From assembly GCA_037305845.1 (NCBI GenBank), contig CP147778.1, positions 3,360,001 through 3,424,000 on the forward strand: a stretch of 64,000 nt of DNA, read 5' to 3'. The translations under genes and the position numbers were made by a program. A model generated the notes under the pieces. That model was not told where the DNA came from and made no database searches. It worked only from the letters and a program-made list of their open reading frames with translations. Shown here in pieces: positions 44,452 through 47,967 of this stretch (its first letter is position 1; every line of letters begins with the position of its first letter). This DNA is from Candidatus Freyarchaeum deiterrae (lineage in GTDB: Archaea; Asgardarchaeota; Jordiarchaeia; Jordiarchaeales; Jordiarchaeaceae).

Positions 44452-44901
44452 CTACCTATGCCCTTTTGTTCCTTTGCCACACTTTTCGCAAATGCCGTAT
44501 ATATCGAGTCGTTGTCCCGTTGCAGTGAATTTTGTCACAGAAGCGACCCTTTCGACAATTTCTTGTGCAATATGATCGTCCAGATCCTGAATGTTGCCAC
44601 ATTTCATGCAAACCAAGTTTATGTGAGGTTTCATATTTGGATCGAATCTCGACTCCCCATGTGGGAAACCCAGCTCCTGTATTTGACCGAGCTCTTTTAG
44701 GATTTGAAGAGTCTTGTAAACTGTCGCGAGGCTAACTGTTGGATGAATTGCCTTGACTTCATCATAGATTCTCTTCACACTTGGGTGCTCTCGACTGCCA
44801 AGGACGAACCGACAAATCGCTATCCTCTGCGGAGTAGCTTTGTATCCTTTCCTGCGGAAAGCTTCGATTATCGCTACGTCAGATTTCTGGTAATTGTTCA
44901 T
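44452..44901 (-). CDS. perR: Fur/PerR-family regulator
   Basis: TPQRIAI, HPS, SLATVYKTL, HINLVCMKCG and GICEKC; divergent from the catalase locus. Confidence 0.85.
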   Translation of the reverse strand: MNNYQKSDVAIIEAFRRKGYKATPQRIAICRFVLGSREHPSVKRIYDEVKAIHPTVSLATVYKTLQILKELGQIQELGFPHGESRFDPNMKPHINLVCMKCGNIQDLDDHIAQEIVERVASVTKFTATGQRLDIYGICEKCGKGTKGHR

Positions 44902-44978
44902 AATTATTAGGTAATAACAAGTCTTAAATAAATTTTCATATACTATTTTAAGCAAAAATGTACCAGGAGAGGAGGATA

Positions 44979-45221
44979 TTGAAAAGTACGAAAGAAAAAC
45001 AGATATCGACTAAACAGAAAGCATCTGTCAGCGGCCAGCTCACTACCAATCAAGGGATTCCTGTCAGCGACAATCAGGATTCACTTACCGTCGGTGAGCG
45101 TGGACCGGTTCTGCTGCAAGATTTTCACCTGATTGAGAAGCTTGCGCACTTCGACCGTGAACGCATTCCGGAGCGCGTAGTACACGCCAAGGGTGCCGGG
45201 GCCCACGGCTACTTCCAAGTA
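44979..45221 (+). pseudogene. katA: Monofunctional haem catalase, N-terminal remnant
   Basis: [57 protein letters not shown], then homology stops. Confidence 0.9.
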
Positions 45222-45274
45222 AAAATTAAAAGCACCACCGTGGATAAAATAATACAACGATGGGAGGCGGAGTT

Positions 45275-47470
45275 ATGAATGAAGATAGCAAGCGCCCGGT
45301 AAAGGGCGGGGTAAACACACAAGCAACCGGCCGAGGCACGTCCAACCTCGACTGGTGGCCGAACCAGTTGAAGATCGAGGTCCTGCACCAGCATTCCTCC
45401 AAGTCCAACCCGATGGGCGAGGACTTCAACTACGCGAAAGAGTTCAGGAGCCTCGACCTGGCGGCTGTGAAGAAAGATCTCGCGGCGCTGATGACCAATT
45501 CTCAGGACTGGTGGCCGGCGGACTTCGGCAACTATGGCCCTTTGTTCATTCGCATGGCGTGGCACAGCACCGGCACATACCGCGCCGGTGACGGCCGCGG
45601 CGGCGGCGGTAGGGGCCAGCAGCGTTTCGCGCCGCTCAACAGTTGGCCGGACAACGTCAACCTGGACAAGGCGCGTCGCCTGCTCTGGCCGATCAAGCAG
45701 AAGTATGGCCGGAAGATTTCATGGGCCGACCTCATGATTCTTGCGGGCAACGTCGCCCTGGAAACGATGGGATTCAAGACCTTCGGGTTCGGAGGCGGTC
45801 GTGAGGATGTCTGGGAGCCGGATCAGGACGTCTATTGGGGCTCTGAGGACAAGTGGCTGGGTGATAAACGCTACTCCGGCGACCGGAACCTCGAAAATCC
45901 GCTCGCTGCCGTGCAGATGGGGCTGATTTACGTCAATCCGGAAGGCCCGAACGGCAACCCGGATCCGATCGCGGCGGCCAAGGATATCCGCGAGATTTTT
46001 GCTCGCATGTCCATGAACGACGAAGAGACGGTTGCGCTCATCGCTGGCGGTCACGCCTTCGGCAAAACCCACGGCGCCGGTCCTGCGTCCCACGTCGGGC
46101 CTGAGCCAGAAGCGGCCAGTATCGAGGAGCAAGGCCTCGGTTGGAAGAGCAGCTTCGGCGCCGGCAAAGGCGACGACACGATCAGCGGCGGCCCGGAAGT
46201 CACCTGGACCCAGACGCCAACGAAGTGGAGCAACAACTTCTTCAGGAACCTGTTCAGCTACGAATGGGAACTGACGAAGAGCCCGGCCGGTGCGAAACAA
46301 TGGAAGCCGAAGGGTAACGCAGGTGCCGGTACCGTGCCGGATGCCCACGACCGGTCAAAGCGTCACGCGCCAGGCATGCTGACCACGGACCTCGCCCTGC
46401 GGTTCGACCCTGTCTACGAGAAGATTTCACGGCGCTTCATGGAGCATCCGGATCAGTTAGCTGACGCGTTCGCCCGGGCGTGGTTCAAGCTGACGCACCG
46501 GGACATGGGCCCCCGCTCGCGCTATCTCGGCCCGGAGGTTCCTGCGGAAGAGCTCATCTGGCAAGACCCCATCCCTGCCGTCAATCACAAACTGATTGAT
46601 GCACAGGACATCCGTTCCCTCAAGGGCAAGATCCTGGCTTCGGGGCTGTCCGTATCCCAACTGGTCTCGACCGCCTGGGCTTCGGCGTCCACCTTCCGTG
46701 GCTCCGACAAGCGCGGCGGTGCGAACGGCGCACGAATTCGCCTTGAGCCGCAGAAGGATTGGGAAGTCAACCAGCCTGTCCAGCTGGCCAAGGTGCTTAA
46801 GACGCTGGTGGGCATCCAAAAGGAGTTCAACAGCGCCAAGTCCGGCGGGAAGAAGGTGTCGCTGGCTGACCTGATCGTCCTAGCCGGCTGCGCCGGCGTC
46901 GAGCAGGCGGCGAAGAATGCCGGCCACGATGTGACGGTTTCCTTCACGCCGGGACGCATGGACGCCTCGCAGGAGCAAACCGACGTGAAGTCATTTGCTG
47001 TGCTCGAACCGGTTGCAGACGGGTTCCGTAACTACCAAAAGACCCGCTATGCCGTATCGGCCGAGGAGTTACTGGTTGACAAGGCGCAATTGCTGACCCT
47101 GACCGCGCCCGAGATGACGGTGCTCGTGGGCGGCATGCGGGTCCTGAATGCCAACTTCGGACAGTCCCAGCACGGCGTCTTCACCAAGCGGCCGGAGGCG
47201 CTGACCAACGACTTCTTCGTGAACCTGCTCGACATGGGCACGGAGTGGAAGGCGGTATCGGATGCCATGGACGTGTTTGAAGGCCGCGATCGTAAGACCG
47301 GCGCGCTCAAGTGGACCGGCACGCGTGTAGATCTGATCTTCGGTTCGAACTCCCAGCTCCGCGCCCTGGCCGAGGTCTACGGAAGCGCGGACGCGCAGGA
47401 GACGTTTGTCCAGGACTTCGTGGCGGCCTGGACCAAAGTGATGAACCTTGATCGCTTCGATCTCGCCTGA
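45275..47470 (+). CDS. katG: Catalase-peroxidase
   Basis: [48 protein letters not shown] and MNLDRFD; markedly GC-rich. Confidence 0.97.
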
Positions 47471-47533
47471 TCGGAGCATAAACGTCTTCAATGGTGGAGA
47501 ACCTCACGAAGGCGGATAAGAACGCCGGACAGT

Positions 47534-47741
47534 GTGTGGCAAAGGGCTGAAGTTGTGAATGGCATATCCAGCGGGCCGCCACGAATCATCTCGTGGAACA
47601 TTACCCTGCGGTGTCCGCTGAAATGTGCCCACTGCTACGTGGACGCCGGGGATCGTGAAGCGGAGCAGGCTCTCTCCACGGAGGAAGCCTTTGATGTCAT
47701 TGACCAGATCAGGGCTGCCGGAAAGTCGGTTGTCGTCCTCA
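47534..47741 (+). pseudogene. Truncated radical SAM (AhbC/AhbD/NirJ-like) N-terminus
   Basis: PRIISWNITLRCPLKCAHCY...LSTEEA...IDQI, cut at VVVL. Confidence 0.8.
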
Positions 47742-47742
47742 C

Positions 47743-47967
47743 ATCGAAGGTGACATAGTGCGTAAGAAGATCAGTCTCACCAACGACTTCAAGCAGGCTG
47801 GTGAACGCTACCGTTCACTCAGTAAAGTAGACCAAGACCATTTAGTAGATAACATTGTTGATTCTCTAGGAAAGGCGAACAGGCAAATTCAACAGCGTGA
47901 GGTTGAGCATCTTACTAAAGCTGACCCTGAATTTGGCAAGCGTGTAGCAAAAGGGCTGAAACTCTAG
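47743..47967 (+). pseudogene. katA: Monofunctional catalase, C-terminal remnant
   Basis: IEGDIVRKKISLTNDFKQAGERYRSLS..DQDHLVDNIV.SL......IQ.R....L.KADPEFGKRVAKGL. Confidence 0.85.

Follow-up and report, generated by a model that had tools for sequence, protein, structure and literature searches.

A methanogen-type catalase-peroxidase gene between the two ends of a broken catalase gene in Candidatus Freyarchaeum deiterrae: a probable displacement in situ

The window analysed here is a stretch of 64,000 nucleotides (nt) from Candidatus Freyarchaeum deiterrae (GenBank assembly GCA_037305845.1, contig CP147778.1, positions 3,360,001 to 3,424,000), an Asgard archaeon whose complete genome of 3.58 Mbp comes from Californian wetland soil (Valentin-Alvarado et al. 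2024, PMC11291895). The genome is a single contig of 3,576,204 bp; it carries an archaeal small-subunit ribosomal RNA and a homologue of VPS28 (ESCRT-I), for which none of 14 control genomes gave a match. Between positions 44452 and 47967 of the window, a gene for a Fur-family regulator lies divergent from the 5' part of a monofunctional heme catalase gene (katE/katA). This part breaks off into a GC-rich catalase-peroxidase gene, katG, which is followed by the beginning of a radical-SAM gene and only then by the 3' part of the catalase gene (Table 1; aa, amino acids; SD, Shine-Dalgarno sequence; HMM, hidden Markov model). The original prediction, made from the letters of the stretch, had described this arrangement, and open reading frame (ORF) listing, Pfam, NCBIfam and direct reading recovered every element of it in place.

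Table 1. Features of the interrupted regulator-catalase cassette, in positions of the window
Feature	Position	Strand	Remarks
Fur-family, PerR-like regulator gene, 149 aa	44452..44901	-	divergent from catalase; Pfam FUR 2-121/121
Candidate operator, inverted repeat TTATTA-GG-TAATAA	44904..44917		adjoins regulator start codon; kept in Atabeyarchaeia L092 and L093
TATA-like box TTAAATAAA, putative resident catalase promoter	44924..44932	+	TTAAATA invariant in 4/4 aligned cassettes
Catalase (katE/katA) 5' remnant	44958..45221	+	Pfam Catalase 1-64/383; catalase HMM positions 4-82
Imported katG leader, 53 nt	45222..45274	+	AT-rich TATA-like box 45222-45233, conserved block, SD GGGAGG 45262-45267
katG, intact catalase-peroxidase gene, 731 aa	45275..47470	+	TIGR00198 1224 bits; PRK15061 1343 bits
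Imported katG-ahbD spacer, 84 nt	47471..47554	+	88% identity to L007 over 75 nt; partly kept in L060
Truncated AhbD/NirJ2-like radical-SAM/SPASM gene, first 62 codons, GTG start 47555	47555..47742	+	Pfam Radical_SAM
Right junction zone CCTCAC	47737..47742		either parent possible; putative microhomology of 4-6 nt
Catalase 3' remnant, ~75 codons plus stop	47743..47967	+	Pfam Catalase-rel; HMM positions 417-494
T8 run, likely resident catalase terminator	48009..48016	+	first strong oligo-T signal after katG

The regulator ORF extends over 44452-44955 on the minus strand, with a likely true start at 44901 that fits the homologues and independent gene calls. On the other strand, the resident TATA-like box lies ~27 nt upstream of the catalase ATG at 44958, and in the alignment of cassettes a conserved GAGAGGAGGAT then follows. 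The ORF opened by this ATG (44958-45278) consists of 88 catalase codons and then of foreign DNA, up to a TGA at 45276-45278; this stop codon overlaps the katG ATG (45275-45277) to form ATGA at 45275-45278, an overlap that the original prediction had pointed out and that direct reading bears out. At the far end, the radical-SAM reading frame runs on into catalase DNA and stops at 47758, in a frame different from that of the catalase 3' remnant. The GC content changes at 45222 from ~40% to ~62%, the level of the whole insert (45222-47742), and the resulting island reaches 60.5% over 2.7 kb, compared with 40.7% for the genome on average; of the 11 islands in the 3.58 Mb, no other is as GC-rich. 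By ORF listing and Pfam, the insert contains katG and the one gene fragment only.

Measured against intact genes, ~1,030 bp of the catalase gene (~340 codons, HMM positions 83-416) are missing, and because this includes the proximal-Tyr region, the resident catalase is, judging from its sequence, dead. Whole-genome tblastn with intact catalases and an HMM scan found just the two fragments in the 3.58 Mb, so that a second displacement nested within the first was considered and rejected; HMM positions 83-416 are absent genome-wide, and no complete monofunctional heme catalase core (Pfam PF00199 plus PF06628) is present. Catalases matching the stub occur in 83 of 399 other Asgard genomes; the best of these matches, at 86-91% aa identity, all fall in one family, identified as Atabeyarchaeia from one named protein. 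Intact regulator-catalase cassettes of Atabeyarchaeia align with the regulator, the intergenic region and both catalase ends at 73-85% nt identity: L092 at 73% over 44473-45220 and 81% over 47746-47967, and L094 at 85% on both sides (up to 45221, and over 47744-47974). This homology ends at the edges of the cassette, and five genomes of the same genus hold neither catalase nor katG, with only Fur paralogues of ~40% identity; the cassette is therefore an accessory module in this species. The intact catalase gene that the original prediction proposed to look for in relatives exists in Atabeyarchaeia but not in the five same-genus genomes. A protein search for a near-identical intact catalase did not discriminate, since many lineages have 93-95% identity over the N-terminal 60 residues.

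The best NCBIfam model for the regulator is PerR, at 129.8 bits and below the cut-off of 180, and its best PDB match is Bacillus subtilis PerR (2FE3). Both CxxC pairs of the structural Zn(Cys)4 site align with Cys96/99/136/139 of the B. subtilis protein, all four cysteines being kept; at the regulatory metal site (His37, Asp85, His91, His93, Asp104, B. subtilis numbering), four of the five residues are kept, including Asp104, and the His93 position is Asn. We consider "PerR-like" a fair, if unproven, label. The "perR" and "katA" of the original prediction are labels derived from Firmicutes; a host from that bacterial group was rejected on the archaeal ribosomal RNA, the VPS28 homologue and the exact agreement of the KatG coordinates with the published genome, which is that of an Asgard archaeon. 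The candidate operator occurs twice in the genome where 1.6 occurrences are expected by chance, so what speaks for it is its conservation.

The KatG scores given in Table 1 exceed the family cut-offs (770 bits for TIGR00198, 981 bits for PRK15061), with 9-724 of 725 covered. The protein is 78% identical to Burkholderia pseudomallei KatG, and in the alignment of the two the RMAWH, IYVNPEG, MNDEE and GGHxFGKTHG motifs are kept, as are the distal Arg-Trp-His, the proximal His and the residues of the Met-Tyr-Trp adduct. The gene has 61.9% GC and a GC content at third codon positions (GC3) of 0.79. Its position and GC content are identical to those of the published entry SRVP-Freya_3155, listed as KatG at 3405275-3407470 with a GC of 0.619 (supplementary table of Valentin-Alvarado et al. 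2024, PMC11291895).

A possible donor was sought among the 80 best katG loci of species-representative genomes. A single one of these, from a Methanoregula metagenome-assembled genome (L007), aligns over the whole insert (45225-47740, 84.5% nt identity), taking in 50 nt of leader, the spacer and the 5' end of the radical-SAM gene. The radical-SAM fragment, whose best NCBIfam models are NirJ2, AhbC and AhbD, shares 64.5% aa identity with the gene that follows katG immediately in L007; its 62 codons hold a CxxxCxxC motif and no SPASM domain, while the full-length L007 homologue has both. The gene order in L007 is katG, an AhbD/NirJ2-like radical-SAM/SPASM gene, AhbA, AhbB and a second, AhbC-like radical-SAM/SPASM gene, which is an alternative heme biosynthesis (ahb) operon. 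Of 160 katG loci compared, none of the other 159 has a radical-SAM homologue downstream of katG. The leader aligns with the regions upstream of katG in L007, in Methanocellaceae locus L060 and in the metagenome contigs L111, L119 and L156, and a KatG tree places the protein in a clade of 95% support together with Methanosarcinaceae, Methanothrix, Syntrophales and others. A KatG phylogeny and a search for donors with katG beside an Ahb/NirJ-like gene were among the checks proposed in the original prediction.

A sliding comparison reveals that katG is itself a mosaic. Its 5' third (45395-45995) is 94-96% identical to Methanosarcina-type alleles (L011, L008, L115), the remainder is 80-90% identical to various lineages, and the 3' part and both flanks are of Methanoregula type. 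Because the best matches reach 84-90% and because of this allele mosaic, the donor would be an unsampled methanogen-type genome that drew on a recombining allele pool. Metagenome contigs of JGI offered no closer donor, with a best match of 88% nt identity over the coding sequence only, and no second locus in which katG leads into a radical-SAM gene. More generally, the katG alleles of this anaerobe gene pool are recombinant mosaics, and this katG clade forms a GC-rich island in many low-GC recipients.

The katG of Freyarchaeia has already been published as a transfer, placed within Methanomicrobia and with 88% identity to a Methanosarcina protein (PMC11291895); our KatG match and tree, for the same gene in the same genome, agree with this. 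The published account counted a KatE catalase in all three of its genomes, the stub (gene 3154) being entered as katE, and described KatG as unseen in Asgard archaea before (PMC11291895). That last statement no longer holds, with KatG present in 64 of the 399 other Asgard genomes. Neither the text and available supplements of that paper nor a companion paper on mobile elements reports the destruction of KatE, the position of katG inside katE, the ahbD fragment, the junctions, the ahb-linked donor order or the recurrence described below. The transfer from Methanomicrobia was thus known; the loss of KatE, the junctions, the ahb-linked donor arrangement and the recurrence are new here.

The junctions can be placed to within a few bases by comparing the window with L007 and with the intact catalases L092-L094. 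The left break falls after the GTA ending at 45221, with 0-3 nt possibly shared between the parents, and the right break falls within CCTCAC, of which 4-6 nt are attributable to either; up to these points both catalase arms are of resident type. No direct or inverted repeats were found at 45222 and 47742, and at the insert there is no transposase, integrase, insertion sequence (IS) end, target duplication or terminal repeat, in line with the original prediction that IS and target duplication are missing. Since recombinase, repeats and duplication are all wanting, illegitimate recombination would be the economical mechanism for the joining.

To see whether such an arrangement occurs elsewhere, a catalase profile built from five Asgard catalases was compared with six-frame translations of ~167 katG loci. 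Catalase remnants abut katG in nine further loci (L113, L156, L111, L055, L171, L175, L008, L027 and L007), and an intact catalase next to katG was found in none of the ~167. The breakpoints differ among the loci with remnants, and no other of the ~167 shares either junction of the window. As the co-transferred genes (ahbD, ahpC, furA-like) differ as well, several of the displacement events appear to be independent. Among the 399 other Asgard genomes, catalase is present in 83, KatG in 64 and both in only 2, where 13 would be expected; a naive hypergeometric test gives a P of 2e-5, with the proviso that related genomes are not independent.

Some of these loci resemble the window closely. L113 (Ga0335070_10003276, 239-3922), an unrelated contig, has the same anatomy with both catalase flanks: a catalase stub (HMM 11-77), a GC-rich katG, a frameshifted AhpC/peroxiredoxin gene and a catalase C-terminal remnant (HMM 461-494); an FmdE gene downstream suggests an archaeal host. 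In L156 (Ga0180437_10000112, 4310-7200), a divergent PerR-like gene, 44% identical to that of the window, precedes a catalase stub of 33-46 codons, a short GC-rich filler, a leader of the Methanoregula/Methanocella type and katG, which forms an island of ~60% GC where the host has ~32%. The left end of the shared leader lies within ~10 nt of the same AT-rich box in three unrelated loci (45222 in the window, 5948 in L007 and ~4945 in L156) and abuts a different catalase fragment in each; L111, L060 and L119 share ~45 nt more of upstream sequence. A Fur/PerR-family gene stands directly upstream of katG in ~54 of 165 loci (L005-L190), mostly co-directional as in the furA-katG type; a few share the divergent orientation of the window. 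In L216 (G089:C1:2197000-2209000, at 4570-4785), from a further Asgard genome, ~70 codons of a catalase N-terminus stand alone. Considered as a second Asgard case of displacement, this G089 stub was rejected; it has no C-terminal piece, katG or GC island and is an ordinary remnant.

KatG is a heme enzyme, yet the genome that encodes it is apparently devoid of tetrapyrrole synthesis: in the closed genome, no homologue of hemB (PF00490), hemC (PF01379) or AhbA/AhbB was found. The published genome description has corrinoid-dependent pathways in use (PMC11291895). Given the missing genes, and since the insert brought only a useless stump of ahbD, KatG would need external heme, as the former catalase would have done; methanogen or sulfate-reducer neighbours are perhaps its source.

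A foreign katG flanked by both ends of a catalase gene, in a genome without any other catalase, is the pattern by which in situ analogous displacement can be recognised. We consider it probable that a monofunctional catalase was displaced in situ by an analogous methanogen-type catalase-peroxidase, in what amounts to a compensating insertion. This is also how the original prediction had read the locus, as a foreign enzyme of the same function standing in place of the middle of the catalase, beside a PerR-like regulator and without the signature of a mobile element. In the course of events that we propose, ~2.52 kb of methanogen-type DNA, from a genome with katG directly upstream of an ahb operon, would have replaced ~1.03 kb (~340 codons) in the middle of a catalase gene that belonged to an accessory PerR-like/catalase cassette. 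The join would have been illegitimate, by end-joining or mediated by microhomology. Most likely the insertion persisted because, in destroying the catalase while supplying a catalase-peroxidase, it offset its own damage, and the same selective filter would account for katG inside the catalase remnants of other lineages. The simplest reading of such a filter is that gene-destroying insertions survive best if the same function is restored.

The original prediction had gone further and suggested that katG captured the resident PerR-controlled catalase promoter, with the stub as a leader that couples translation by termination and reinitiation at the ATGA. Several features are in keeping with this. 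From the resident start, the stub ORF meets no stop codon before the TGA that lies across the katG ATG; of the three frames, only that of the catalase stays open through the foreign leader. In archaea, translation can be coupled through ATGA overlaps (PMC6728339). The regulator and the conserved operator-like repeat are intact. Plus-strand T runs of at least five within 44900-48250 are limited to one T5 inside katG and the T8 of Table 1; no strong oligo-T terminator thus separates the resident promoter from katG, and the first one after katG is the resident T8. Against this stands the published metatranscriptome, in which the stub, entered as gene 3154 (Freya "katE"), has a count of 0 and katG one of 289, while the Atabeyarchaeia catalases have 7 and 4 (PMC11291895). 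Under uniform co-transcription with katG, the stub should have drawn ~42 reads; these counts therefore argue against co-transcription from the resident promoter in situ and make a shared transcript doubtful. Furthermore, the insert brings its own AT-rich TATA-like box, conserved block and SD, common to methanogen katG loci; the ATGA belongs to the start codon context of the donor, being found in all close homologues; and the open frame is a 1-in-3 outcome. Of the nine other loci with a catalase stub beside katG, none was seen to have such an ATGA overlap, a comparison made by sequence for L113, L111 and L156. An RNA structure masking the katG start was considered and rejected, the leader being unstructured (z = -0.30) and so without anything that coupling would need to unmask. 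Dependence of katG on the resident promoter, with the stub as coupling leader, therefore seems to us unlikely, if the least so of the alternatives considered here. With a methanogen as donor type and an Asgard archaeon as host, the imported archaeal promoter could work directly after the transfer, and we suggest that the core promoter and SD brought in at the left junction are most likely the main drivers of katG expression. For its part, the resident promoter under PerR-like control may be silent or may contribute inducible read-through as an extra, and the transcript probably ends at the resident oligo-T terminator.

As to the origin of the locus, an abrupt GC switch, together with Logan contigs that break inside katG, might suggest that Asgard and methanogen reads were joined in assembly, the circumstance that the original prediction named as fatal to it. 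This is not what the independent data indicate. In the Logan short-read assemblies of two different runs, SRR29366204 and SRR15677223, the left junction is spanned by contigs that match 43995-45410 and 44090-45436 at 100% identity, and another contig of SRR15677223, also at 100% identity, crosses the right junction, running from the radical-SAM fragment through the Catalase-rel piece into the next two host genes. The halves of one gene flank the insert on both sides, and curation of the published genome was directed against GC-switch chimeras, with independent Nanopore and PacBio assemblies to validate it (PMC11291895); we regard the chance of a chimera as negligible. A composite of catalase 5' end, katG and catalase 3' end might instead have formed in another organism and arrived with the whole cassette, or by homologous recombination via the catalase arms. 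The cassette does look mobile, being absent from the five same-genus genomes and bounded by the limits of Atabeyarchaeia homology, but neither junction recurs among the ~167 loci, both arms are Atabeyarchaeia-like up to the break and the regulator has a GC3 (0.45) equal to the level of host genes, and we find prior assembly elsewhere improbable. We think even less of a neutral accident, in which a dispensable catalase was hit in an insertion-prone region and katG does nothing in a heme-less host. A second GC-rich foreign segment does lie 4 kb away, inside the ORF 39393-41576, the region lacks synteny to the same-genus genomes and heme synthesis genes were not found. Set against this, the catalase gene makes up ~1.5 kb of 3.58 Mb (~0.04%), so that a chance hit by a catalase-peroxidase would come about ~4 times in 10,000; the same pairing exists in nine other loci; katG has an intact ORF and lacks none of the catalytic motifs; and its transcription is reported to be among the highest of the Freyarchaeial genes (PMC11291895). 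Finally, katG modules might have been fixed in monofunctional catalase genes of archaea and bacteria far beyond chance, and the three left ends near one AT-rich box could mean that the module has a defined end and an unknown mode of mobilisation or targeting, so that selection is not the whole story; this we would likewise rate as improbable. Displacement in situ remains our preferred explanation, and certain findings tell against it. With five same-genus genomes lacking the whole cassette, an event in this lineage cannot be demonstrated as opposed to one in an organism that carried the cassette before. To be active, KatG would require imported heme, since the closed genome shows no hemB, hemC or AhbA/B. 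The microhomology was judged from relatives rather than from the real parents; the true donor is absent from the databases, so that with best matches of 84-90% and a mosaic katG the named donor lineage is approximate. Lastly, the transcript mapping had Asgard genomes as its sole reference, at >=97% identity (PMC11291895), so that near-identical donor katG reads from the same soil could inflate the count of 289.

Two neighbouring regions of the window deserve mention. The second GC-rich segment (~39400-41000, 58% GC) is part of one long minus-strand ORF, 39393-41576, with a PEP-utilizers mobile domain at its C-terminus. A donor shared with katG was considered for this segment, and because five methanogen and Syntrophales genomes with the closest katG loci gave only distant domain matches to 39393-41000, a shared donor is not supported and the segment would derive from a different one. 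The ORF 43620-44318 (232 aa), without a Pfam or NCBIfam match, belongs to a multi-copy family, diverged DNA copies of which are numerous elsewhere in the genome (e.g. at ~3.128, 3.171-3.176 and 0.105-0.128 Mb) and in same-genus genomes. An Rfam scan of the window gave no matches.

Omelchenko, Koonin and colleagues reportedly described, in 2003, "gene displacement in situ" in mosaic operons. At the locus described here, likewise, a foreign gene stands where a resident gene with the same biochemical role had been, in an unchanged locus and regulatory neighbourhood; unlike there, both stumps and a fragment of the donor's neighbouring gene survive, and the host is an Asgard archaeon. Because the stumps and the donor fragment survive, the breakpoints and the donor gene order can be read directly, and the locus is an unusually legible case of in situ analogous gene displacement. 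In bacterial furA-katG and perR-katG modules, the regulator usually points in the same direction as katG and is transferred along with it. A Fur-family peroxide regulator adjoins katG in the window as well, but here it is divergent, and it is the resident partner of the destroyed catalase rather than an import.

For Freyarchaeum, the finding corrects the published inventory: the organism is without a working KatE, and the imported KatG is its sole potential catalase activity. It also provides base-level junctions for a gene transfer of methanogen type into an Asgard archaeon, in a complete genome and from a soil where both live together, and indicates that plain illegitimate recombination can bring foreign DNA into Asgard genomes with no mobile element involved. 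The recurrence of the arrangement, considered along with how rarely catalase and KatG share an Asgard genome, may offer a tractable natural example of functional redundancy steering where transferred genes become fixed.

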